From Patescibacteria group bacterium (GTDB lineage Bacteria; Patescibacteriota; UBA1384; UBA12157; JAENIV01): a stretch of DNA of 32,500 bases. The stretch spans positions 1 through 32,500 of the forward strand of contig DATEAX010000041.1 of NCBI GenBank assembly GCA_035288145.1, in the 5' to 3' direction. A model generated the notes under the pieces. It was not told the DNA's origin. It was given only the letters and a program-made list of their open reading frames with translations, and did no database searches. Positions 2,527 through 30,258 of this stretch are shown piece after piece (position 1 is the first letter of the stretch; the number at the start of each line of letters is the position of its first letter). Made by a program: the position numbers and the translations under genes.

Positions 2527-3048
2527 ATGGCTAAATTTACCAGGCGACAAAAATTGAGTCCTAAAGAAGAAACGGATTTAATTATCAAATTTTGTCAAGC
2601 GATTGCTTCTATCTCTAAAACAGAGGAAGCGGCATTATTTGTTCGCGATCTCTTGTCGAAACCCGAAGTTAGAATGCTTGCTAAAAGATTAAAGATTGCG
2701 GAAATGTTAATTAAGGGTGAGAAGTATGAGGACATAATCGAGCAATTAAAAGTTAGTGCCTCGACTATCGCACGTGTGAACGTTTGGCTAAACCAATCCG
2801 GCGAGGGCTATCGATTAGTTTTAAACCGAACAAGCAGGATTAAAGAACCCAGGAAACCAGTTTGGACAGGTCTTAAAAGGAAATATCCGATGTACTATTG
2901 GCCTGAAATCCTCCTGAAGGAAATTATTTATTCTGCCAACAAAAAGCAAAAAGACAAACTCAAGCTTTTACTTGATAAGTTAGATGAAAAGAATGAACTA
3001 ATTAAGGAACTCGATGAGATGTTGAGGAAAAACTATCATACTACGTAG
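2527..3048 (+). CDS. TrpR-like (YerC/YecD family) DNA-binding protein with a C-terminal extension
   Basis: The N-terminal roughly 100 aa (LFVRDLLSKPEVRMLAKRLKIAEMLIKGEKYEDIIEQLKVSASTIARVNVWL) matches the Trp-repressor-like YerC/YecD pattern. ATG 2527 lies 5 nt after agagg. The track start at 2524 is a GTG one codon upstream. Confidence 0.75.
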   Translation: MAKFTRRQKLSPKEETDLIIKFCQAIASISKTEEAALFVRDLLSKPEVRMLAKRLKIAEMLIKGEKYEDIIEQLKVSASTIARVNVWLNQSGEGYRLVLNRTSRIKEPRKPVWTGLKRKYPMYYWPEILLKEIIYSANKKQKDKLKLLLDKLDEKNELIKELDEMLRKNYHTT

Positions 3049-3060
3049 TATGATAGTTTT
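3029..3060. terminator. Perfect 32 bp palindrome (bidirectional terminator-like) containing the same ATACTACGTAGTAT core
   Basis: The sequence aaaactatcATACTACGTAGTATgatagtttt is perfectly self-complementary. It overlaps the TAG stop (3046-3048) of the TrpR-like gene. Confidence 0.65.
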
Positions 3061-3125
3061 GTATATACTAGAGCTATTTAGTATAGCATAAATTTCTTCA
3101 AAAGTCAAGAGTCGAGCCCCTTTTC

Positions 3126-3150
3126 TTGTTCGCTTTTTGTATGGTATAAT
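3126..3150 (+). promoter_or_regulatory. Extended -10 promoter upstream of dinB
   Basis: TGGTATAAT lies at 3142-3150. The 13-mer tggtataatatag is repeated exactly at 4525-4537. The -35 element is poor. Confidence 0.5.
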
Positions 3151-3165
3151 ATAGATGGCTATTTC

Positions 3166-3193
3166 GCTAACGGCTAACCGCTAACAGCTAACA
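3166..3193 (+). repeat. Tandem heptanucleotide array (GCTAACN) x4 in the dinB leader
   Basis: Read directly as gctaacg gctaacc gctaaca gctaaca. Confidence 0.9.
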
Positions 3194-3236
3194 GTAATCT
3201 GCTTGAAGGAAAGATAATTATAGATAATACCAACCA

Positions 3237-3257
3237 GCGGTAAGCGGTCTGCGGTAA
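3237..3257 (+). repeat. Tandem heptanucleotide array (GCGGTNN) x3, roughly inverted relative to the first array
   Basis: Read directly as gcggtaa gcggtct gcggtaa. The reverse-complement unit ttaccgc differs by 1 nt from taaccgc in the first array. Confidence 0.85.
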
Positions 3258-3275
3258 GCTGATTTACCAAACATT

Positions 3276-4532
3276 ATGCAACCGCCGAAAGATTACGCCA
3301 ATTTATTTCTGGATATGAATGCTTTTTTTGCTTCGGTTGAACAACAAGTCCAGCCGTCTTTACGAAACAAGCCAATTTGCGTTGCTCCCTACCCGGGCAA
3401 TACCGGCTGCTGTATTGCCAAGTCGTATAAAGCCAAAGCTTTCGGGGTGAAAACCGGCACCCTCGTAGGGGAGGCCAAAAAGCTTTGCCCGCAGATTATC
3501 GTTCTGGAATCCCGTCCCGAACTTTATCTGTTTTATCATCGGGAAATCGTCAAGGTCTTGAAAAATTTCAGTCCTTTTTTGAGAGTTCTTTCGATTGATG
3601 AGTTTAACATCAAATTAACTGGCCTGGACCAAAATCGAGAAAAGGCTCTCGAGATGGCCAGAAAGATCAAAGAAACCATTTTGAAAAAAGTCGGCGATTA
3701 TCTAACTTGTTCGATTGGCATCGGGCCGAATATGTGGCTGGCAAAAGTCGCCGGGGAGCTTGGAAAAGCCTGCCTGCCGGCAGGCAGGCCCGACGGTTTG
3801 GTGGTCGTCGCTCTTGAGGAATTGGGAGTGTGGTATCGGAGCCTGGATTTGATGGATCTTCCTGGGATAAATGTTGCCATGGCGCGCCAGCTTCATCATC
3901 GCAAAATTAAAACTCCCTTTGATTTTTATCTCCAACCCTTGTTCAATCTTTCCCGCTGGTTTGGTCATCCCGGCCGGGTCTGGTTTTATCGTTTGCGCGG
4001 CTTTGAAACCGATGAGATTGAGCCGGCAACCAAATCCATCGGTCATCAGCATGTTTTGGCGCCGGAGTATCGGACAATCGCCGCGGCCCGGCGGGTGTTG
4101 GTAAAACTTGCGGAAAAGTGCGCCCAGCGTCTTCGGGCGAAAAATTTGTGGACGGGAGGAGTATCTCTTGGGATAAAATTTTTGAATGGACCGTTTTGGG
4201 AAAAAAATGCCGCCACCGACCTTGTTGCCGATAGCCAAAATATCCAAAGAATTGCTCTTTCGCTTTATGATGCTTGTCCGATTCAAAAACCGCCTTTGAG
4301 GATTGCCGTGACCCTTTTCAATCTCACCCAAGTTCGCGGCGAGCAGATTTCCTTGTTTTCTAAAATCGAGAAATCGCGCCGCCTGTCGCAAATGATGGAT
4401 GAGATTAACGATAAATACGGTCCGGAGACAATCTATCCGGCCTCGATGTTCGGAGCCTCGGAGGCCGCCCCGACGAGGATTCCCTTTGGCAATCCTGCCA
4501 GAATTGGCAATTTTGACCAAAATGTGGTATAA
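3276..4532 (+). CDS. dinB: Y-family DNA polymerase IV
   Basis: The N-terminal motif is LDMNAFFASVEQ. It also has SIDEFN and the GIGPNMWLAKVAG...KP.G helix-hairpin-helix region, which are typical of DinB/UmuC. Confidence 0.9.
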   Translation: MQPPKDYANLFLDMNAFFASVEQQVQPSLRNKPICVAPYPGNTGCCIAKSYKAKAFGVKTGTLVGEAKKLCPQIIVLESRPELYLFYHREIVKVLKNFSPFLRVLSIDEFNIKLTGLDQNREKALEMARKIKETILKKVGDYLTCSIGIGPNMWLAKVAGELGKACLPAGRPDGLVVVALEELGVWYRSLDLMDLPGINVAMARQLHHRKIKTPFDFYLQPLFNLSRWFGHPGRVWFYRLRGFETDEIEPATKSIGHQHVLAPEYRTIAAARRVLVKLAEKCAQRLRAKNLWTGGVSLGIKFLNGPFWEKNAATDLVADSQNIQRIALSLYDACPIQKPPLRIAVTLFNLTQVRGEQISLFSKIEKSRRLSQMMDEINDKYGPETIYPASMFGASEAAPTRIPFGNPARIGNFDQNVV

Positions 4533-4533
4533 T
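4504..4533 (+). promoter_or_regulatory. Strong sigma70-like promoter embedded in the dinB 3' end
   Basis: TTGGCA (4504-4509), an 18 nt spacer, then TGG-TATAAT (4525-4533). The -10 overlaps the dinB stop codon. It points into a 0.47 kb region with no credible ORF. Confidence 0.6.
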
Positions 4534-4539
4534 ATAGCC

Positions 4540-5007
4540 AGAAAGGAAGGAAATGCTTGTTCCCTTGGAAGGGTCAGGCGTTTCGGTTTCCGAAAAGAGA
4601 ATCCCCCAGAAATCTTAGTACTCATACCGAGGCGTCTGGAATGGTTCTTTTTCGAGGAGTGTTTCGTTTTTATCCTTTATCCAAAGCCCGGTGTAACTTA
4701 CTCGGGTCAGAGTTTCTTTCCAAGATTTCGTCCGTCCCAACTATAAATAAGGGCAATAGACGGAGATTTGGAAAAACTCTTGGCTTCCTGGCAAGACGCT
4801 GGGCTTCGGGAGAAAAATGAATCTTCCAGGGCGGGCTTTAAAGGAATGCTTGGAGCAACAACTATTTGCCTAAGGAGTCCGGAGTTCTCTTGCCACGAGT
4901 GGCAGGGGACAGGACACCACTTTAGAAAAAACGCCGAGCAACTTCCCCCGCCTTTGGAAGAAAGCGAAGAATGGCCTAACAGGGTCAATGCTGTTTTTGG
5001 CATTGAC
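4540..5007 (+). ncRNA. Candidate structured non-coding transcript(s), class unknown
   Basis: - ORFs appear in several frames, but none looks protein-like.
- GC is above that of typical intergenic DNA here.
- A long irregular hairpin spans about 4710-4781 (GAGUUUCUUUCCAAG...CUUGG-like arms).
- A hairpin CUUGCCA-CGAG-UGGCAGG lies at about 4889-4906.
- An 8 bp stem (4984-4991 with 5000-5007) lies at the 3' edge. Confidence 0.35.
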
Positions 5008-5057
5008 AAAAAAATATCCCATGGTACTCTAATATTAGACCCCCGTAGGGAGGGTCT
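5003..5057 (+). promoter_or_regulatory. csoR-copA promoter with a CsoR-type operator
   Basis: TTGACA (5003-5008), a 16 nt spacer, then TGG-TACTCT (5022-5030). This is followed by the GC-tract pseudo-palindrome agacccccgtagggagggtct (5037-5057). The pseudo-palindrome resembles known CsoR operators of the form TACCC...GGGGTA. Confidence 0.6.
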
Positions 5058-5079
5058 TGATAAGTTAAAAGTAAAAACA

Positions 5080-5349
5080 ATGAAGAGAAATTCTAAAAAA
5101 CAAACTCTTGACCGAATGAATTACCTGATTGGCCATCTTCAAGCAAACCGGAAAATGATTGAAGGAGACAAGTATTGTATTGATGTCATTCGTCAAAATG
5201 ATGCGGTGATTTCCGCCTTAAAAAAAGTCAACGACCTGATATTAAATTCCCATCTTGAAACCTGCGCCACAACGGCGATTAAAGATGGTAATATAAAGAA
5301 GAGACAAAAAATTTTAAAGGAGCTTTTGGATATTTACCAGGCAAAGTGA
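5080..5349 (+). CDS. csoR: CsoR/RcnR family metal-sensing repressor
   Basis: The 89 aa protein [39 protein letters not shown]...SHLETC carries the Cys...His...Cys signature of the family. The upstream part of the track ORF 4768..5349 is not protein-like. Confidence 0.85.
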
Positions 5350-5353
5350 ACCT

Positions 5354-8278
5354 ATGGCCAAGACAATTTTAAATATTAAGGGGATGCATTGCGCCTCGTG
5401 TATGGCAAAGATTGAAAAATCGCTTAAGAGAGTCCCGGGGGTGGAAAAAGCGGCGGTGAATCTTTTGACTAATCAGGCAACGGTAGTTGGTAATTCTCAA
5501 GCCAAGGACCTGGTTTTGGCGGTTGAAAAGGCCGGTTACGAGGCGGAAATTGTTAAGCCGGCTGATGAGCATCCGGGTTCAGAACATTTAATGACCCATC
5601 GGATGCCCACCGGCGAAGAGATGACCGGCGCAAGTCACGATGTCCATGCCGAACATGCCAAGCTTGAATCGGAGGGGGAAATAAAACTTCTTAAAAATAA
5701 ATTTCTCTTCGGAGCGGTTTTCTCAACGGTGATTCTCGTTTTAAGTTATGCCATCTATCTTCCGGTGCTTAAGATATTTCCGAGCCAAACTTTGAATTAT
5801 CTGATGTTTATTTTAGCCACTCCCATCCAAATTTGGCTTGGCAGTCAATTTTACCGCGGAACTTGGCGGGGAATAAAACACTTCAGCGCCAATATGGACA
5901 CTTTGATTGCCGTGGGGACAACGGCGGCTTATCTATATTCGGCGGCGATTACATTTTTTGCGGGGTATTTCGAAAATGCCGGCATAAAAGGCGAGGTTTA
6001 TTTTGACACGGCGGCGGTAATTTTAACCCTGATTATTTTAGGGAAATTTTTTGAAGCTCGAGCCAAAGGTCAGGCCTCGTCAGCCATCCAAAAATTGCTC
6101 AAACTTCAGGCCAAAACCGCCACTGTTTTACGGGACGGCAAAGAGGTCAAAGTCCCAATCGAAACAGTCCAAAAGGGCGAGATTATTATTGTCCGTCCCG
6201 GCGAAAAAATCCCTGTTGACGGGACAATTACCGAAGGGTATTCGTCAATTGACGAATCAATGATTACCGGCGAATCCATGCCGGTGGAGAAAAAGATTGG
6301 CGACGAGGTTATTGGCGCGACGCTCAATAAGACCGGCAGTTTCCAAATGCGCGCCACCAAAGTCGGGGCGGAAACCGCTCTGGCGCAGATTGTCAAATTG
6401 GTTCAGGAAGCCCAGGGTTCCAAGGCGCCCATCCAGAAATTAGCCGACATTATTTCGGGATATTTTGTGCCGGTGGTGATTTTTATTGCCATTTTAAGTT
6501 TCATTCTCTGGCTTATCTTTGGTCCGGCGCCTGCTTTTACTTTTGCCTTGGTGATTTTTGTGACAGTTCTGATTATCGCCTGTCCCTGCGCTTTGGGTCT
6601 GGCAACGCCGACAGCGATTATGGTTGGCACCGGGCTGGGGGCGGAAAACGGCATCTTGATTCGCGATGCCGAATCTTTGGAAATTTTTGGCAAAACAAAA
6701 ATGGTGGTTTTTGATAAGACCGGTACCTTAACGCGCGGCGAACCGATAGTTACAGACGTCGTTATAATGCCTCGGGTCACCCCTTCGCTTTCAGCCGCCC
6801 TAGCCAACCTAGTCTCGAATTCGCCTTCGGCGATTCGGGACACCGGCATTTCGCTCAGGGGCTCCCCTCGGCTGGAAAATGCGATTGTTAATATTGCTGC
6901 TTCGCTTGAAAAAAATTCCGAGCATCCGCTCGCCGAGGCGATTGTTAAATACGCGCAGGCGCAGAAAATTGAAATTGTTAAGCCAACGCGGTTTAATGCC
7001 ATCCCTGGTCACGGCGTCGAGGGGGAAATTGATGGCAGGACTATTTTTTTGGGAAATCGCAAATTGATGGAGCGCGGAAAAATCAAAATCGATGAAGAAA
7101 TCGAGAAGAAGATCCAGAAACTGGAGAATGATGGCAAAACCGTCATGATACTTGCTATCGCTCAAGAAATTGTCGGACTTATTGCTGTCGCCGATACTCT
7201 GAAAGAGCATTCTAAAGAAGCAATCCAAATGCTTCATCAAAAGGGCATAAAGACGATTATGATTACCGGCGATAACGAGCGGACAGCCAAAGCGATTGCC
7301 CGCCAAGTGGGGATTGATGAGGTTTTGGCCGGTGTTTTGCCCGAAGATAAAGCCAAAAAGATTAAAGAATTACAGCGGCAAACGGCAAACGGTAAACGGT
7401 TAACAGTTTCGATGATCGGCGACGGCATTAATGATGCTCCAGCTTTAGCTCAAGCGGATATTGGCGTGGCCATCGGTTCGGGAACGGATGTGGCGATGGA
7501 AGCCGCCGATGTGACTTTAATTGCCGATGATTTAAGAAAAGTCCCCCAAGCCATTCAGCTTTCCCGGGCGACAATGCGGACGATTAAGGGAAATCTTTTT
7601 TGGGCATTTGTCTATAATATTTTGGGTATTCCAGTGGCAGCCGGCGTTTTGTATCCGTATTTCGGGATTTTGCTTAGTCCGATTATTGCCTCGGCGGCAA
7701 TGGCCTTTTCATCGATTTTTGTTGTTTTGAATTCCCTGCGATTAAAAAAGTCCCGAAAATATTTGGGGACCCAATTGACAATGGTGATATTGTTAATTAT
7801 CGTCGGGGCATCAGTGGCGGGGTATAATTTAAGTCAGCCAAAAGCCAATTTCGAAAAGCTTATCGCCGGCGCTCAAGCCAAAGTTATTCCCGAGAATAAT
7901 TCTTCCTCGGTTCTGGGACTGACTTTTTCCAACGAAAGTTACGAGCAGTTGGTAAGAGACGCCAAGATTGTTTTGCCTGCCAACCAGATGGTTCTTTTTT
8001 CCGGTTTTGATGTTCGAATGCCCTGTTGCGGTTTTAAAAAAACCGTCGCCAATTTCCCAACCAACTGCCAGTGCGGTCATCATCTAGCAGTTTACGGCCT
8101 GATAAAAAGAATGATGATTGCCGGCTCCACGCGGGAGGAAATTCAGGCCGAAATTTACCGTTGGACAAATTATTTTTTCCCCAAAGAGGCAATTGCCCAA
8201 GAGCTTAAAAAAGAAAATATCGGCAAGAAGGATTTGGAAAAAGCGATCAATTTATTAAATACCAAGGGGGGCTGTTAG
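5354..8278 (+). CDS. copA: Copper-translocating P1B-type ATPase with an extra C-terminal TM and Cys-rich domain
   Basis: It has an N-terminal HMA domain ([15 protein letters not shown]), a CPC motif ([14 protein letters not shown]), DKTGTLT and [10 protein letters not shown]. About 175 aa lie beyond the usual end (LNSLRLKK). Confidence 0.93.
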
Positions 8279-11748: not shown

Positions 11749-11777
11749 TTGACAAAAGAAATACCCCTCCTGATAAT
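11749..11777 (+). promoter_or_regulatory. Sigma70-like promoter
   Basis: TTGACA (11749-11754), a 17 nt spacer, then GATAAT (11772-11777). It is followed by a structured leader of about 160 nt. Confidence 0.6.
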
Positions 11778-11943
11778 AGGTATGTAACCTTAACATAAGG
11801 TTAGAAGACAGAGTCCGCCGTCGTTCAATCTCTTCCAGTATCCTGAATTTCAGGAATCTGCAAATAGATTTCACTTTGGCGGACTTCCGGGTTTTGCTTC
11901 CGGTTGAGGAACGCAAAACTCGGAGTGAAAGGAGGTGATTTAC

Positions 11944-12156
11944 ATGGCTTATTCAGTTCAATCGAAAAAAACCGGCGAAACTTACTATCTTCACTCAAAA
12001 GATGTCACTCTGCGCGGCGGCCGGCAGCAAACGATTTATTACTTTGCCCGAACTCAGAAAGAAGGCGTTTTGGATGATTTGCCCGAAGGTTATGCGGTGA
12101 TGGAAAACAGCCGAACCGGGCTACCGATGCTTAAGAAGAGCGATAAGGAAAAATAA
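11944..12156 (+). CDS. Small conserved-looking hypothetical protein (70 aa)
   Basis: A strong SD (aaaggaggtga) lies 6 nt upstream of ATG 11944. The protein begins MAYSVQSKKTGETYYLHSKDVTLRGGRQQTIYYFAR. Confidence 0.65.
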   Translation: MAYSVQSKKTGETYYLHSKDVTLRGGRQQTIYYFARTQKEGVLDDLPEGYAVMENSRTGLPMLKKSDKEK

Positions 12157-16970: not shown

Positions 16971-17561
16971 ATGGATAAAATTAAGATACAAAAAACAGAA
17001 ATTGTTGCTCGGGAAATACTCTTGTATTTTGTGGATTTTTTTCGTTTTACTATTCCAATTTTTGATAAAGCAGGAGTGTATCGAATTCCCTTTAAGGAGT
17101 ATGACAAATTTCGGTTGAATGATAAAATTAAATTTAGTCACGAGATGCACCGGCTTAAAAGGGCCGGTGTAATTAAGAAATATATTGATGAAAAAGGGGA
17201 ATTTATTGAGCTCACTCCCAAGGGCCAGAAATGGGTAAAGAAATATTTTACAGAGCAGTTAGAAATCAAAATACCTCAAAAATGGGACAAAAAATGGCGT
17301 TTGGTTATTTTTGATATTCCGGATACGAAGAAGAAAGAGAGGGACATTTTAAGAGAAAAGTTAGAAAGGTTGGGATTTTTGAAACTTCAGGAAAGCGTTT
17401 ATGTTTTTCCTTTTGAGTGCAGTTTCGAGATCGAAGCGTTCAAGAAAATGTATATTATTGAACCTTATGTTCAATATATTTTAGCTGATAGAATTGAAAC
17501 GGAAATTAATTTGTTGGAGGAATTTTACGATTTGGGAGTATTAGATAAACATAATATCTGA
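16971..17561 (+). CDS. PaaX-like / Cas2-fold transcriptional regulator family protein
   Basis: An N-terminal wHTH-like region is followed by WDKKWRLVIFDIPDTKKKERDILREKLERLGFLKLQESVYVFP. This matches the PaaX C-terminal pattern W.G.W.LV.F.IPE..R..RD.LR..L...GF..L..G.W..P. Confidence 0.6.
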   Translation: MDKIKIQKTEIVAREILLYFVDFFRFTIPIFDKAGVYRIPFKEYDKFRLNDKIKFSHEMHRLKRAGVIKKYIDEKGEFIELTPKGQKWVKKYFTEQLEIKIPQKWDKKWRLVIFDIPDTKKKERDILREKLERLGFLKLQESVYVFPFECSFEIEAFKKMYIIEPYVQYILADRIETEINLLEEFYDLGVLDKHNI

Positions 17562-22903: not shown

Positions 22904-24829
22904 ATGGCAAGGAAAAGACAACGAAAATTAAGTAAAAAAGAGGCCAAAGCGGAAAAAAAGTCAACCGTCAACCGTTCACAGTTTAGCGAAGAAAAAAAAA
23001 TTATGAACGGTGAACCGTCGGCGGTGCGCAATATCGTCGAGGTTCCGGCGGTTTTGTCAGTACGCGAATTTGCCGAAAGTTTGAAGCTCCCGGTCACCCA
23101 AGTTATTTCCAAGCTTGTTCAAAATGGCGTTATGGCGACGATTAACGAACTGATTGATTTCGACACGATGTCGATTATTGCCGATGAGCTCGGTCTTAGA
23201 GTCACGCCCAAGGAGGAGAAATCAGCGGTTATAGAAATTATCAAAACGAAAAAAAACCTCAAACCTCGCTCGCCGGTCGTAACGATAATGGGGCATGTTG
23301 ATCACGGCAAAACTAAACTTTTAGACGCCATTCGACATACTGATGTTGTTGCCACTGAATCAGGCGGGATTACTCAACACATTGGTGCCTATCAAGTTGA
23401 GGTTCGTCCAAATGACGAACCGAAATCCCGAGGCGGCAAAGCCGATCGAGGGAGCTCTCGACAAGCTCTGGATGATTTTGCGTTGACGCGCAAAATCACT
23501 TTTTTGGATACTCCCGGCCATGAGGCTTTTTCGGCAATGCGCGCCCATGGGGCCAATATTACCGATGTGGTTGTTTTAGTCGTGGCGGCAAATGATGGGG
23601 TTAAACCACAAACGGCAGAGGCCTTTGCCCATGCCAAAGATGCCAAAGTGGCGGTGGTGGTGGCAATCAATAAAATTGATTTGCCCGATGCTGACGTAGA
23701 AAAGACGAAAAGGCAGCTGGCGGACATCGGCCTTCTGGCCGAAGAATGGGGAGGAAAAACGCCGATCGTTGAAGTTTCGGCGAAACTTCAGAAAAATATT
23801 GAAAATTTGTTAGAAGTCGTTTTACTTGTTGCCGATTTGGCCGAGCTCAAGGCCGACCCGGATCTTTTGGCCGCCGGCGTCGTCATCGAGTCGCATATGC
23901 AGGCCGGTCGTGGACCGATTGCTACCGTTTTGGTTCAGGAAGGGACTTTAAGGCTCGGCGACCCCATCGTTATCGGACAGACCTACGGCAAAGTCAGAAT
24001 TATGGAAAATTATTTGGGCAAAAAGATTACCTCGGCCGGTCCTTCGTCACCGGTGAGAATTGCTGGCCTTCAGGACCTGCCGGATTTTGGCGACCGCTTT
24101 TTGGTGGTGGAAAATGAAAAAACCGCTAAAGAACTGGTAAAAACCAAGACTATCAAGCGCCGCGTTCTTTCGATCGGCGAACTTTCCAAAGATATTAAAG
24201 AGGGCAAAACCAAAGAATTAAAAATTATTTTAAAGGCCGATGTCGGCGGGTCGCTGGAGGCGATTAAAGATTCTTTAAAAAATATTTCCTCGCCTGAAGT
24301 AAAAATGAATCTTATTCACGAGGGGGTCGGAGACATTTCCGAATCCGATATTAATATGGCGATTGCCTCAAGCGCATTAGTTATCGGTTTCCGCGTCAAA
24401 GCCGATGCCGATGTCATGAATCTGGCCCGTCGGGAAAATGTCAAAATTTCCATTTATGAAATTATTTATCAATTGCTCGATGATCTTTCCGCCGCCCTTT
24501 CTGGTCTTTTGGAACCGGAAATTGTTGAAACGGAACTCGGTCGGCTGGAGGTTTTGGCAGTTTTTAGAACGAGTAAAAACGAAAAAATTGTCGGCGGCAA
24601 AGTCACCACTGGTAAAATCCCAAACGGTGCTGAAGTCCGTCTTGTCCGCGACAAAGAAACCATCGGGGCGGGAAAAATTACTTCTCTCCAACAAAATAAA
24701 AAAGATGTTCCCGAGGTAAAAGAAAATTTTGAAGCCGGACTTAAAATCGAAACCTCGACGAAAATTTTAGTCGGCGATATTTTGGAGTGTTTTCAAAAAG
24801 AGGAACGGGCAAGGAAACTGGGGGTATAA
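22904..24829 (+). CDS. infB: Translation initiation factor IF-2
   Basis: It has the G domain motifs ([17 protein letters not shown]) and the C-terminal IF-2 domains. The G domain carries an insertion of about 25 aa. Confidence 0.95.
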
Positions 24830-24832
24830 TGA

Positions 24833-24859
24833 AAACCGTCCGAGAATGGACGGTTTTTG
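24833..24859. terminator. Bidirectional intrinsic terminator (serves infB and the convergent RNA gene)
   Basis: The sequence aaaaccgtcc-gagaat-ggacggtttt forms a 10 bp stem. The A-run and T-run give a U-tract in both directions. Confidence 0.8.
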
Positions 24860-25201
24860 TAAGATGGCGGCCGCCGGTTACACGAAACCTTTGGCTTAGG
24901 TTCGTTTGAGGGTAACCTCATCGGTTGCCCTCTCGCGATAGCTTATCTGCTAACCCTTACGGGGGATTTGCTCTCTAGGAGCCAGGAGCCCAGAACCTGG
25001 GTCTCCATCCTCTTCTTGGTCTACACCCGCGAAAGCGAGTGCACTTTCCTTTCGGACAGACCCTGCCATCGTCGAACCCACCGGGTCATTTTTTCTGATC
25101 GTCGATTTTGTCATCGCTTCCCATCCTGTACGAAGACAGGAAACGACCATGTCTTGCCTCCATAGATTGGCTTCGTGCCGCCTCACCATATCTTCAAGAC
25201 A
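24860..25201 (-). ncRNA. Structured RNA gene of about 340 nt, class unresolved (short RNase P RNA-like motif matches, not confirmed)
   Basis: - A consensus promoter lies upstream and a terminator lies downstream.
- There is no credible ORF.
- The 5' and 3' ends pair: GGCGGC/GCCGCC and CACGAAGCC/GGUUUCGUG.
- GNRA-capped hairpins are UCC-GAAA-GGA (25048-25057) and CCC-GUAA-GGG (24955-24964).
- There are several further GC-rich stems. Confidence 0.6.
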
Positions 25202-25207
25202 ACCCAA

Positions 25208-25236
25208 TTATAGCATAAAACTTATAATTTGTCAAG
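25208..25236 (-). promoter_or_regulatory. Consensus sigma70 promoter for the minus-strand RNA gene
   Basis: On the minus strand: TTGACA (25236-25231), a 17 nt spacer, then TATAAT (25213-25208). Confidence 0.75.
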
Positions 25237-25286
25237 GGTTGGGTCATCTTGGCAGTAATTTTTGTATTTGACAGAACTTAACTTTT

Positions 25287-26291
25287 TTGTTTAAACTGAA
25301 GAGGCACCCAAGGAGGTTTGAAATTTTTAACCTTACTTCTCGTCTAATCGTCATTCGCAAAAAAATCCGTAATCGGATTCCCGAGGGCCTGATTGATTTT
25401 GGGCAGCGCAAGGTCCTGCCTTATGTGGCAATCATCATCATTGCCCTTTTTACGATGATTGCCGATTTAGCCAAAGCCCAAGAGCATAATGTTATCTATA
25501 CTCCTTCGGAAGATGTTATGGACTTATCGCCGGCCGAGGTGGCCAAAGTCACTTCAATTATCGGGCCTTATACCGCGGAAATCGATGAGGATCCGGTCTC
25601 GGTGGCCTTGGCAATCGAAAACAAAGACTATCTTGGAAAGCCGGTGATTTCGGCCACGGAAATTACCGAGCGGCCCAAATCAGATGAAAAAAGAACCAAG
25701 ACAATCATTTATACCGTTGAAGGGGGCGACACTTTGTCTAAAATCGCTTGGGATTACAGCTTGAAAATTGCCACCATTAAAGTTGCCAACGGTCTTTCTT
25801 CGGATATGATTAAACCCGGTCAAACGCTCAAATTGCCGCCTCAAGATTTGGATCCGGGGACGATAGCCAGCTTAAAAACCAAAACCGTCGCTGGGGTGGC
25901 CATCAAGCCGTTTAAGGGCACATTTCGCTCTCCCACCAGCGGCTGGCGGCTGACTCAAGGGTTTGGCCGGACTGGTTTTGAAAGATTTCATGACGGGATT
26001 GATTTGGATTGGGGGTCAGGAACAACCTTATATGCCGCGGCATCGGGAAGAGTTGTCAGAGCAACTCGAGGTTGGGGCGGGGGATACGGGACCCATATCG
26101 TTATTGATCACGGCGACGGCTTCCAGACTCTTTACGGACATATGTCGAGTTATTCGGTTGGTGTCGGTCAGTGGGTCAATCAAGGTCAAGTGATCGGCGT
26201 TATGGGCAACACCGGCTGGTCAACCGGCGTCCATGTTCATTTTAAAATTACTAAAAACGGTACCCCGGTTAACCCGCTGGATTATTTATGA
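25287..26291 (+). CDS. LysM domain-containing M23 family metallopeptidase
   Basis: It has a TM anchor, a LysM domain (YTVEGGDTLSKIAWDYSLKIATIKVANGL...PGQTLKLP) and M23 motifs (HDGIDLD, GHMS, GNTGWSTGVHVHF). The start codon is uncertain; see the findings. Confidence 0.85.
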   Translation: MFKLKRHPRRFEIFNLTSRLIVIRKKIRNRIPEGLIDFGQRKVLPYVAIIIIALFTMIADLAKAQEHNVIYTPSEDVMDLSPAEVAKVTSIIGPYTAEIDEDPVSVALAIENKDYLGKPVISATEITERPKSDEKRTKTIIYTVEGGDTLSKIAWDYSLKIATIKVANGLSSDMIKPGQTLKLPPQDLDPGTIASLKTKTVAGVAIKPFKGTFRSPTSGWRLTQGFGRTGFERFHDGIDLDWGSGTTLYAAASGRVVRATRGWGGGYGTHIVIDHGDGFQTLYGHMSSYSVGVGQWVNQGQVIGVMGNTGWSTGVHVHFKITKNGTPVNPLDYL

Positions 26292-27785: not shown

Positions 27786-28790
27786 ATGTCTAAAATTCAA
27801 GAATTATTATCAGGCAAAACGGATCAAGTTAACTATGAAAAAATAGTCAAAGATTATCCGTGGATTATAAAAAGGGGACAAAATTGTATTTTGAGTCCAG
27901 ATAGTGACGGTTTATTATGTGGTCTATTTATGTCCACTTATTTAGATTGGCGAATAAAAGGTTTTTATGATGGGAAGGTAATGTTGTTAGATAAAGATAT
28001 TTCGGCTAAAGATTGCGTATTTTTGGATATGGAAGTTTTTAGAAAGGATATAAAAAGCGTTGGTCACCATATGGTCCAATTTAATAAAAAGAAAAGGCCG
28101 TCAAACTGGAATAATTATAAAAATTGCATCCAGCCAAACAATTTACGAAATTATGACGGATACAAGGACTTCCGCTTAAAATATCCGTTAGCGACTATAC
28201 ATTTTTTAATTGGGATAGTTGGCTCAAAAATAAAATTAACAATTCCTCAATCGGCTATTTGTCCATTGTTTTATGTTGATGGCGTGTTCAAAAACTTATT
28301 TGGCTATCCGGAAAATTGTATTGATTGGTTAAGATATTTAGATGCTAAATCAAATAAAAATAACTTGCATGAAATATTTTTTAACGAGCACTATTCTGTT
28401 TATAATTTAATGGTGGCCTTAAAGGACTTTTTTACGCAAATCAGTGAAATTAGCGAAAATAGAAATGGTAATGATAAAATAAAGATTTCTAACACAAAAG
28501 GAGAACCAGTAAACCCGAAAATGAGTGGCAAAACTTGCGAATTAAATGAAGAAGAAAAGCAAAAATCAGAAAAGTTTTTAAAAATTTTATCGGGATTGAC
28601 GAATTGGAATTATAAAAAAGAAAATTGGCAGTGGGATAACTTAAAAATTTATCAGTTTAGTAAATTTGCCATTAAACCGAATAATAGAAATTTTGAAGTA
28701 ATGATTGCCAAAAACCCAATTTCTTGGGCAATGACTAGCGGCTTAGCCATAGAATATACTATAGATGACAAAAATATTTTGTTAAAATAG
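27786..28790 (+). CDS. Uncharacterised 334 aa protein. By position it is the nuclease/effector candidate. It has DHH-like motifs.
   Basis: I recognise no family with confidence. The candidate motifs are ILSPDSDGLLCG (DxD), CVFLDME (D) and SVGHHM (a variant of DHH). It is co-directional with the C-like gene and converges on the methyltransferase gene with a 9 nt overlap. Confidence 0.55.
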   Translation: MSKIQELLSGKTDQVNYEKIVKDYPWIIKRGQNCILSPDSDGLLCGLFMSTYLDWRIKGFYDGKVMLLDKDISAKDCVFLDMEVFRKDIKSVGHHMVQFNKKKRPSNWNNYKNCIQPNNLRNYDGYKDFRLKYPLATIHFLIGIVGSKIKLTIPQSAICPLFYVDGVFKNLFGYPENCIDWLRYLDAKSNKNNLHEIFFNEHYSVYNLMVALKDFFTQISEISENRNGNDKIKISNTKGEPVNPKMSGKTCELNEEEKQKSEKFLKILSGLTNWNYKKENWQWDNLKIYQFSKFAIKPNNRNFEVMIAKNPISWAMTSGLAIEYTIDDKNILLK

Positions 28791-30233
28791 TTTTCGACTA
28801 GTCGTTCCTTCCTCTTTAAGACGTTTTTTGGCTAATTCGCAATAGTCATTAGATATATCTATTCCAATATAATTTCTCTCTAATTGAATAGCCGCCAATA
28901 CTGTTGTTCCGCTACCCACAAATGGGTCAAGTACAATACCTGTAGGTGGACAAAAACATTGAATAAAATCATACGGCAAACGATCGGGAAATGTTGCTGG
29001 ATGTTGATGTTTAAGACGAGTACCATCTCCGGCTGTCATATACTCCCAAATTGTGCCACGACATTTCCTTAGGTTTATGGTAATTGGACGAGTAGCGATT
29101 CTAACACCATTAGTGAGACGAGTACCGCCACCAGTCATTGTTTTACCACCATGTTTTGACGGGATTTTTAATGGTTCTTTATTAAAGTATTGCGGCCGTT
29201 CTCCTTTCAGAAAAATTGGCATATATTCATGGTCAACACGGAAACGTTTATTCCACCAAGCGCCCTCTGCACCATATTTTCTGTAAATTACTGTTTCAAA
29301 TAATTTAAAGCCGATGTTGTCAACCCAATCTATGATAGTTCTAAAAGAAGTTAGCGATTTGCCAAAATCTTTTGTTTGATCTTGGATAACCATAACTGCT
29401 ATGCCGCCTTCTTTCAGAACGCGATATATTTCTTTACCGGTAGCGTGTAAATCGAAGCTAAAACCATTATATTTTCTGATTCCGTCGTAAGGTGGAGATG
29501 TGACAACTAAATCAATGGAATTGCTAGGAAATTTTTTAAGCTCGCTCACTGCATCGCCACAAATAATTTTATTTAGTGGCACTGTGCTAAATTTTTTTAT
29601 TCCTTTTTGAGGTAATAATTCCGTTGCCTGTAATGCTTCTTCATTTTTAATTACATCAATAACAATACCTTGAATAACAATTCCTCTGTCTTTTTTAATA
29701 ATTATTGGCTCAATAGTCTTATTGGCTGGCTGTAACCTTATGTACCCCTTTTCTTTGTAAAATTTTTTAAGCGTTGCTTCATAGTTATCTAATAAAGCAA
29801 CTACCTTTTGTCCATTTTCGGCAACGCTTTGTTGTTTAACTAAAATTATATCGCCATCTTTGATGTTTTCATCTATCATACTATTACCCAAAACTCGTAA
29901 GGCATAAAATTCGCCAGAATGAGGAAGTTTATTTTGTGGCACAGCGATTGTTTCTTTGTCTTGTATTGCCTCAATTGGTTGACCGGCGGCAATAATACCG
30001 AGTAAAGGAATTTTTATCATTGTATTTATGTCATATATACCAAGAGCACGAGGTCTATTTTTGTCTCTTTTTAAATATCCTAAATCTTGGAGTCTTGAGA
30101 TATGAAAATGAGCCGTTGAAACAGAAGAAAGTTTAAGATATCTTTTAACCTCTTCTAAAGAAGGAGCATAATTATGTCTGGTTATAAAGTTCCTGACAAA
30201 ATCAAGAACTTGTTTTTGGCGTTTTGTAAGCAC
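28782..30233 (-). CDS. LexA (wHTH plus S24 peptidase) fused to a beta-class N4-C/N6-A DNA methyltransferase
   Basis: - Residues 1 to about 200 align end to end with LexA. They include LTKRQKQVLDF, the cleavage site IPLLGIIAAGQPIEA, the Ser motif LRVLGNSM, the Lys motif EATLKKF, and the C-terminal GIVIDVIKN.
- The remainder carries methyltransferase motif IV (DLVVTSPPY), followed much later by motif I (VLDPFVGSGTT).
- There is no stop or Met at the junction.
- The start is probably GTG 30233, 8 nt after aaggag. The track start GTG 30242 overlaps the SD. Confidence 0.85.
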   Translation of the reverse strand: MLTKRQKQVLDFVRNFITRHNYAPSLEEVKRYLKLSSVSTAHFHISRLQDLGYLKRDKNRPRALGIYDINTMIKIPLLGIIAAGQPIEAIQDKETIAVPQNKLPHSGEFYALRVLGNSMIDENIKDGDIILVKQQSVAENGQKVVALLDNYEATLKKFYKEKGYIRLQPANKTIEPIIIKKDRGIVIQGIVIDVIKNEEALQATELLPQKGIKKFSTVPLNKIICGDAVSELKKFPSNSIDLVVTSPPYDGIRKYNGFSFDLHATGKEIYRVLKEGGIAVMVIQDQTKDFGKSLTSFRTIIDWVDNIGFKLFETVIYRKYGAEGAWWNKRFRVDHEYMPIFLKGERPQYFNKEPLKIPSKHGGKTMTGGGTRLTNGVRIATRPITINLRKCRGTIWEYMTAGDGTRLKHQHPATFPDRLPYDFIQCFCPPTGIVLDPFVGSGTTVLAAIQLERNYIGIDISNDYCELAKKRLKEEGTTSRKLF

Positions 30234-30258
30234 TTGACACACTCCTTTTTACTGATTA

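Follow-up and report, generated by a model that had tools for sequence, protein, structure and literature searches.

The DNA considered here is a 32,500-nucleotide stretch from a Patescibacteria group bacterium (contig DATEAX010000041.1), referred to as a whole as the window. Between infB and the gene for a LysM/M23 peptidase, a promoter on the minus strand and an intrinsic terminator bracket a G+C-rich segment from which a folded RNA of about 345 nucleotides (nt) would be transcribed. The genes gyrB, gyrA and infB lie upstream of this site and the peptidase gene and obg downstream of it, and homologs of IF-2, the infB product, place the organism in Candidatus Berkelbacteria, a lineage of the candidate phyla radiation (CPR), with the nearest relatives being 74-79% identical. 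Members of one and the same population, with identity of at least 99.7% across fetched contigs, are present in groundwater, sediment and soil metagenomes. The original prediction, made from the letters alone, had described the segment as a promoter-to-terminator RNA gene that could not be classified, and had offered a divergent housekeeping RNA as one possibility.

The cassette and its insertion site

The promoter reads TTGACA, 17 bp, TGcTATAAT (25235-25207, minus strand), so that the perfect match originally proposed is extended by a TG upstream of the -10 element. No other 12/12 match exists in the 32.5 kb of the window, for which block shuffles lead one to expect 0.04. Three further matches of at least 11/12 occur in the window, each in a gap between called open reading frames (ORFs), and two of these (at 4504 and 11749) stand upstream of a leader or a small gene, a placement suggesting that the polymerase of the organism uses this sigma-70 consensus. 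Transcription would start near 25200, and the intrinsic terminator is found about 370 nt downstream of the extended -10 promoter. Its hairpin (24857-24832) adjoins the stop codon of the convergent infB gene (24827-24829) and is common to the RNA and infB; because A- and U-tracts flank it, it can terminate in both directions, as had been supposed. A consensus terminator scanner did not list this hairpin, probably because A/U pairs use up the T-run. The enrichment in G+C also holds, at 0.52-0.545 across 24800-25199 versus 0.427 for the whole window, and the transcript body has a G+C of about 0.53 compared with about 0.43 for the genome. The tRNA encoded in the window is G+C-rich too (0.66).

The infB contigs of ten relatives were compared at this position. 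No copy of the RNA was detected by nhmmer or blastn in the ten contigs or by covariance model in the first seven, and Rfam found nothing on them. What follows infB differs from one relative to the next: cdaA-ybbR in L086, L092 and L094, a sigma factor plus cdaA-ybbR in L085, a CAP-domain gene in L089 and L131, and small ORFs in L093. As judged from these contigs, Berkelbacteria carry variable cargo where infB meets the LysM/M23 peptidase gene; no cdaA or ybbR remnant was detected in the window by tblastn. The site is empty in L130 and L132, whose IF-2 is 79% (over a part-length gene) and 77% identical to that of the window. In both, the promoter box of the M23 peptidase gene (ATTTGAC...TAAACT or TAAAGT) begins 5-8 nt past the infB stop with no hairpin in between, and the same box is found in the window at 25264-25297. 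Since infB ends directly before this promoter in L130 and L132, the promoter, RNA and terminator constitute one insertion of 433 nt, and since the insertion consists of exactly these parts, they form a discrete gene, which is what the original prediction had claimed. The absence of a hairpin after infB in the two relatives likewise indicates that the terminator came with the cassette and was not an ancestral feature of infB. On this comparative evidence the insertion argues for an accessory rather than a housekeeping gene.

Two observations concern the surroundings of the site. As listed, the M23 peptidase ORF starts at a TTG (25287) within its own promoter (TTGACA-18-TAAACT, 25268-25297), but, judging from an AAGGAGG Shine-Dalgarno (SD) sequence at 25311-25317, translation may in fact begin a few bases downstream of that sequence. 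In L089, about 1 kb of non-coding DNA (2986-4000) is located upstream of infB; it has no Rfam match, is not homologous to the candidate, and holds a 27-nt G+C palindrome, GCGCGGGCCCGCCAGGGCGGGCCCGCG (3616-3642), and a called 59-amino-acid (aa) ORF.

Table 1. Features of the cassette, with predicted helices of the transcript (MFE, minimum free energy).
Feature	Window positions	Strand	RNA positions	Remarks
Whole insertion, 433 nt	24830..25262	.		Terminator, body and promoter; extra relative to L130 and L132
Sigma-70 promoter	25207..25235	-		12/12, TTGACA-17-TGnTATAAT, extended -10
Promoter parts	25235-25230; 25215-25214; 25212-25207	-		-35 TTGACA; TG; -10 TATAAT; 17-bp spacer
Transcript body, ~343 nt	24858..25200	-		Closed multi-branched predicted fold, no Rfam match
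Closing helices, 5′ strand: AAGA, UGGUG, CGG, CACGAAGCC	25169..25194	-	7-32
Small hairpin			36-54	From the predicted helix list
66-codon ORF	24950..25150	-		AUG at 25150, UAG 24952-24950; probably untranslated
14-bp hairpin	25114..25146	-	55-87	Four G.U pairs; begins 5 nt past the AUG of the ORF
Central domain, 190 nt	24893..25082	-	119-308	Five hairpins
GAAA-capped hairpin	25055-25048	-		Central domain
9-bp hairpin, UGCACUCGC / GCGGGUGUA	25043-25022	-		Central domain
Hairpin GGAG(A)CCCAG-GUU-CUGGGCUCC	25006-24985	-		Central domain
GUAA-capped hairpin	24963-24954	-		Central domain
Hairpin GAGGG(C)AACC-GAUGA-GGUU(A)CCCUC	24932-24908	-		Central domain
Closing helices, 3′ strand: GGUUUCGUG, CCG, CGCCA, UCUU	24861..24889	-	312-340
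Intrinsic terminator, bidirectional, AAAACCGUCC-AUUCUC-GGACGGUUUU	24832..24857	.		10-bp hairpin in MFE structure

Predicted fold and internal reading frame

The transcript body spans 343 nt (25200-24858); its MFE is −129.1 kcal/mol, and its centroid structure is nearly the same as the MFE structure. Relative to dinucleotide shuffles its z score is −3.9 and −3.5 in two runs without the terminator and −5.5 with the terminator included, compared with −0.65 ± 1.19 for thirty other 343-nt windows of the contig, which places the candidate about 2.5 standard deviations (sd) below its background. The transcribed strand (−3.9) scores better than its complement (−3.15), and G.U-rich helices favor the transcribed strand. 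Pairing of the 5′ and 3′ ends, estimated originally at about 20 bp, extends over about 22 bp in five segments, and the duplex energy of −27.8 kcal/mol is matched by 8 of 1000 shuffles. All internal hairpins named earlier recur in both the MFE and the centroid structures, although the GAAA- and GUAA-capped stems are merely 2-3 bp long. An A-rich linker separates the 14-bp hairpin from the central domain, which is closed by GGU-GGGUUCG / CGAACCU-GCC and CGAUGGC / GCUAUCG.

We also observed that the minus strand carries the two halves of a canonical 11-nt GAAA-tetraloop receptor, UAUGG (25164-25160) and CCUAAG (24900-24895), in addition to the GAAA loop at 25052-25049. Immediately within the closing helix the two halves lie across from one another, but no base pairs flank them, and they are in competition with the GGGUUCG/CGAACCU helix; by a rough estimate both would occur by chance in about 2% of cases, and they were spotted after the fact.

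The original prediction also held that the segment contains no ORF, which proved to be wrong. Stop-free runs of 100, 87 and 85 codons exist in three different frames, and nested in the 85-codon open frame of the transcript is a 66-codon ORF (25150-24950) whose AUG is preceded at 6 nt by an SD-like GGAGG motif (25161-25157). Flanked by the promoter and a 50-nt leader on one side and a 95-nt trailer and the terminator on the other, this ORF has a canonical layout; it is called by gene callers in every assembly, and its frame has the best codon score among the three. An SD motif followed by an AUG and an ORF of at least 60 codons arises in 0.34% of shuffles by strict rules and in 4.9% by relaxed ones. 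Because the premise of no ORF was incorrect, an mRNA for a small protein had to be weighed as a rival explanation.

Database searches and sequence statistics bear on whether this ORF is used. The ORF and the 85-aa frame find only themselves among 5.8e9 protein clusters, HMMER against 1.84e9 representatives likewise returns only the ORF itself, no Pfam family matches the 66-aa product, and the remaining five frames, joined as one query, find no match in the 5.8e9-cluster collection; these six-frame translation searches were aimed at catching ORFs mis-called on homologous RNAs. An AlphaFold model of the product has no secondary structure (predicted local distance difference test, pLDDT, 58; predicted template modeling score, pTM, 0.13). 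The codon score of the ORF is 0.12, versus 0.33 ± 0.14 for real genes and 0.35 for two genuine genes of 70-73 aa in the window. Its product is rich in G, R, S and P and poor in I, K, L, F, Y and N, which is the composition expected from translating G+C-rich non-coding DNA. Its start region is also predicted to be far more stably folded than those of 20 window genes, at −20.4 kcal/mol for positions −20 to +40 versus −6.3 ± 3.4 (minimum −13.6), and at −19.1 kcal/mol for positions +1 to +40 versus −2.5 ± 2.2. The sole single-nucleotide polymorphism (SNP) within the ORF is non-synonymous (V to A). It is more likely that the ORF is incidental, or at most translation-locked, than that it is an ordinary gene.

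Known RNA families and searches for relatives

At the gathering score, Rfam 15 identifies only tRNA-Gln in the window. When segments of 651 nt and 348 nt were searched at E<=10, no RNase P RNA, transfer-messenger RNA (tmRNA), signal recognition particle (SRP) RNA or 6S RNA was listed, and the only remaining match was a chance snoRNA-like one that is not credible; this limit is spread over 4227 families, such that matches below about 20 bits are estimated not to be listed. The RNA has no credible match to any known family in Rfam, which agrees with its having been called unclassifiable in the original prediction. The same tool recovers Escherichia coli rnpB at 318.6 bits as a positive comparison. 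RNase P RNAs of CPR bacteria are diverged and can fall below the Rfam thresholds (PMC8172020), and the resemblance to RNase P RNA was tested directly against E. coli rnpB and against the RF00010 consensus and structure.

The candidate is similar to class A RNase P RNA (RF00010) in its length (about 340-380 nt), end-closing helix and GNRA-capped hairpins. The short strings noted originally are also real, with AGAGAGCAAA (10 nt), GGCAGGGU, AGGAAAGU and GUAAGGGU being common to E. coli rnpB in the same order. However, their colinearity does not exceed chance, since for chains of 5- and 6-mers shared with E. coli rnpB or RF00010, 59 to 269 of 500 shuffles scored equally well or better (p 0.12-0.54). 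An 11-mer, AAGGAAAGUGC at 25041-25051, differs at two positions from conserved region I (CR-I, GAGGAAAGUCC), but such matches occur in the window at the chance rate (8 observed, 9.9 expected), and on inspection this one lies in local hairpins, where no complement is able to form P4. No conserved region V (CR-V) block (ACAGAAnCCGGCUUA) with three or fewer mismatches is present in the RNA. The helix that had been likened to P4 does exist, with both strands shifted by one position (25073-25079 and 24898-24904) relative to the coordinates first given. Its proposed role fails, because GGGUUCG/CGAACCU is fully nested within the P2-like CACGAAGCC/GGUUUCGUG helix in the order P4b-P2b-P1b, whereas RNase P RNA has the order P2b-P4b-P1b and forms a pseudoknot. 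Moreover, only 8 nt separate the would-be P5 from CR-II, where P7-P11 are expected, and a covariance model (R1) built from the 190-nt core does not recognize E. coli rnpB. RNase P RNA of either class (RF00010 or RF00011) was rejected on these grounds, namely the lack of a covariance model match, blocks at chance level, no CR-I/CR-V pair to make the P4 catalytic helix, and, in place of a pseudoknot, a nested long-range helix. A rewired RNase P RNA we regard as extremely improbable.

The exclusion of tmRNA and SRP RNA by the original prediction agrees with the results of ARAGORN and Rfam. ARAGORN, run with permuted forms included, detects no tmRNA in the window and only the tRNA-Gln. On inspection the ends of the candidate give GGCGGC/GCCGCC without a G:U pair, and no UUCRANY T-loop is found beside the 3′ strand, so that T-arm, G3:U70 and CCA context are all missing. 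SRP RNA (RF00169 and RF01854), whose domain IV is a long hairpin in which helix 8 bears a GNRA loop and a symmetric AGCA/GGA loop, was rejected for want of an Rfam match and of a long helix 5/8. The element GUCC-GAAA-GGAAAGUGC resembles SRP helix 8, with its 3′ side belonging to a second hairpin. For 6S RNA (RF00013), a rod of about 185 nt with a large central bubble, there is likewise no Rfam match, and the predicted fold of the candidate is multi-branched and 343 nt long.

A housekeeping RNA of any of these four kinds that diverged radically and moved beside infB is therefore very unlikely in our judgment. Such a history would fit the size of the transcript (in the case of RNase P RNA or tmRNA), its paired ends, its strong promoter and the rnpB strings, and the divergence of CPR RNase P RNAs, along with the matches under about 20 bits estimated not to be displayed, could account for silence in Rfam. 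It would have to accommodate every result given above, including the chance-level chains, the nested helix order, the core model that is blind to E. coli rnpB and the features missing for tmRNA. It is also at odds with the genomic context: RNase P RNA is universal, while the candidate is accessory, inserted at a variable site and absent there from relatives whose IF-2 is 77-79% identical.

Searches for relatives of the candidate returned only the population itself. The core covariance model matches only its own source when run within the window and the loci of relatives, with the best partial match (13 bits) being to L089 3659-3727, a non-homologous non-coding stretch. A scan of metagenome contigs with six back-translated 24-nt patterns gave 270 pattern matches, of which only those of the same population passed; three scans of viral contigs gave chance matches in coding DNA only; and distant blastn against phages and plasmids gave no match. 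In the contigs of 8 runs, searched at 80% likeness, only copies at least 99% alike were found, in single copy. Population variants are at least 99.5% identical, and three SNPs fall within the RNA, one of which turns a U.G into a C-G pair. With so few, population SNPs are uninformative.

What the cassette may be

We lean towards the view that the cassette is an accessory gene, orphan and self-contained, whose product is a compact structured non-coding RNA about 345 nt long, or about 370 nt if the terminator hairpin is counted. The gene is known so far from one Berkelbacteria population of the CPR in aquifer, sediment and soil metagenomes. The RNA would be made constitutively and at a high level from its very strong promoter. 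Its ends are predicted, with the support of shuffle statistics only, to pair over about 22 bp and to close a multi-branched core consisting of the 14-bp 5′ hairpin and the 190-nt domain, in which two of the five hairpins have GNRA caps. Protection of the molecule from exonucleases might come from the closing helix together with the terminator hairpin, and the hairpin beginning at +5 would occlude the internal ORF. The RNA may act in its folded form and not as a message, with binding proteins or serving as a scaffold being its most plausible tasks. In having its own promoter and intrinsic terminator, a G+C content above the genome average, an extensive fold and no downstream gene to regulate, the candidate resembles stand-alone structured bacterial RNAs without an assigned function that are known from G+C-rich intergenic stretches of A+T-rich genomes, for example raiA, OLE, ROOL, HEARO and orphan small RNA genes. 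However, raiA, OLE, ROOL and HEARO RNAs are defined by many homologs with covariation, whereas the candidate is a singleton from one population and is matched by none of their Rfam models.

The alternative that the transcript is the mRNA of an orphan 66-aa protein appears distinctly unlikely to us, whether it is translated normally or is kept in a translation-locked fold like that of type I toxin mRNAs such as hok. Before processing, hok-type mRNAs stay silent owing to a start region that is closed and to pairing between the 5′ and 3′ ends. These mRNAs are also highly structured and about 350-400 nt long, and the long end pairing and locked start region of the candidate resemble their fold-back inhibition. 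An ordinary small gene is suggested by the canonical layout and its rarity in shuffles, by the consistent gene calls and best codon score, by the predicted position of the SD motif in a 9-nt hairpin loop, where it is not sequestered, and by the fact that accessory insertions usually carry protein genes; orphan small-protein genes on such insertions share the variable site, the strong promoter, the SD-AUG arrangement, a short ORF and the lack of homologs. However, the candidate differs from them in its atypical codon use and composition, in its product having no predicted fold, in the two other frames being open over 87-100 codons, and in its start being locked by the 14-bp hairpin, which begins at +5 and exceeds every start region of the window in stability by 4 sd. 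The absence of homologs extends to both protein collections. Nor does the comparison with hok and sok hold for the product, which is hydrophilic, predicted to be disordered and devoid of a hydrophobic segment, in contrast to most type I toxins and to a membrane peptide, or for regulation, no antisense promoter of at least 9/12 being present within 24860-25240. There is no family match either.

The insertion could instead be left over from foreign or mobile DNA, transcribed from a strong promoter that it happens to carry but without a function; a decayed element that landed in a variable intergenic site and has imperfect inverted repeats at its termini would be one example. We consider this unlikely as well. 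The differing cargo among relatives, a G+C content foreign to the genome and the lack of relatives in all searches made are what would be expected of such a remnant, and the paired ends could pass for inverted repeats, imperfect and about 29 nt long. Those ends, however, are inside the promoter-terminator bracket and away from the insertion boundaries, and the fold spans the whole molecule rather than its ends alone. Moreover, junk would not be expected to be bracketed exactly by a perfect extended -10 promoter and a matched terminator. The unit occurs in single copy at a depth equal to its flanks, with no second copy of at least 80% identity in the 8 runs or the window, and neither target-site duplications nor flanking repeats accompany it; a miniature inverted-repeat transposable element was ruled out for these reasons. 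Among specific functions, a CsrB-like sponge was rejected by our own count of GGA motifs (6, versus about 8 expected), and a CRISPR association was rejected because there is no array. RNAduplex predictions of targets among 27 start regions gave a best energy equal to the shuffle mean and are uninformative.

Several observations weigh against the non-coding RNA that we favor. No homolog was found in the searches described, so no covariation can be counted and comparative support is missing, although RNA homolog searches are far less sensitive than protein searches, and "no homolog" is therefore a weak statement for an RNA. No RNA-seq run was found to contain the stretch. Two of the three SNPs, both in one assembly, break predicted pairs, and SNP density in the RNA equals that of the flanks, which would also suit a remnant. 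The arrangement of GGAGG, 6 nt, AUG and 66 codons is improbable by chance (0.3-5%) and fits an ordinary small gene, and a near-consensus promoter elsewhere in the window drives a real 70-aa gene (11944-12156). Folding statistics derived from a single sequence count as weak evidence, and one of the 30 background windows, a structured leader at 4481-4823, reached a z score of −4.4, so the fold of the candidate is unusual but not unique within its contig.

A more specific proposal can be made only tentatively, and we rate it as somewhat doubtful: the cassette might encode the first representative of a not yet described class of compact structured RNAs in Candidatus Berkelbacteria, about 345 nt in length, and might have been acquired as a mobile unit of promoter, RNA and terminator. 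Such an RNA may use a contact between a GAAA tetraloop and an 11-nt receptor, and may have a dual function through a translation-locked ORF.

Other features of the window were recorded along the way. On the plus strand at 4504-4770, a promoter matching at 11/12 (TTGGCA-18-TGgTATAAT) stands ahead of an untranslated leader, about 230 nt long, which precedes an ORF (4768-5349) and a P-type ATPase with a heavy-metal HMA domain (5354-8278). A 343-nt window over this region (4481-4823) has a z score of −4.4 and the leader alone −1.9, with no Rfam match, and this could be an undescribed cis-regulatory leader. At 11749-12156 on the same strand, the promoter TTGACA-17-GATAAT, a 5′ untranslated region of about 160 nt and an AGGAGG SD precede a 70-aa ORF (11944-12156, MAYSVQSKKTGETYYL...) that is not in the ORF list; its codon score (0.35) is normal, it served as a comparator above, and it looks like a real small gene. 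A 486-aa ORF on the minus strand (28782-30242) fuses LexA DNA-binding, Peptidase_S24 autocleavage and N6/N4 DNA methyltransferase domains in what looks like an unusual architecture. A 196-aa protein encoded at 16971-17561 on the plus strand has a PaaX central (Cas2-like) domain, with no CRISPR array in the window.

Since the candidate is not a divergent RNase P RNA, it provides no argument for unusual tRNA processing in this lineage. While it remains a singleton, its value is that of a flagged candidate for metatranscriptomics rather than a discovery. CPR genomes are tiny and have little spare DNA, and a strongly promoted, folded accessory RNA, if true, would be a rare candidate for a lineage-specific non-coding RNA. 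Such an RNA could point to RNA-based functions in the episymbiotic lifestyle of CPR bacteria.

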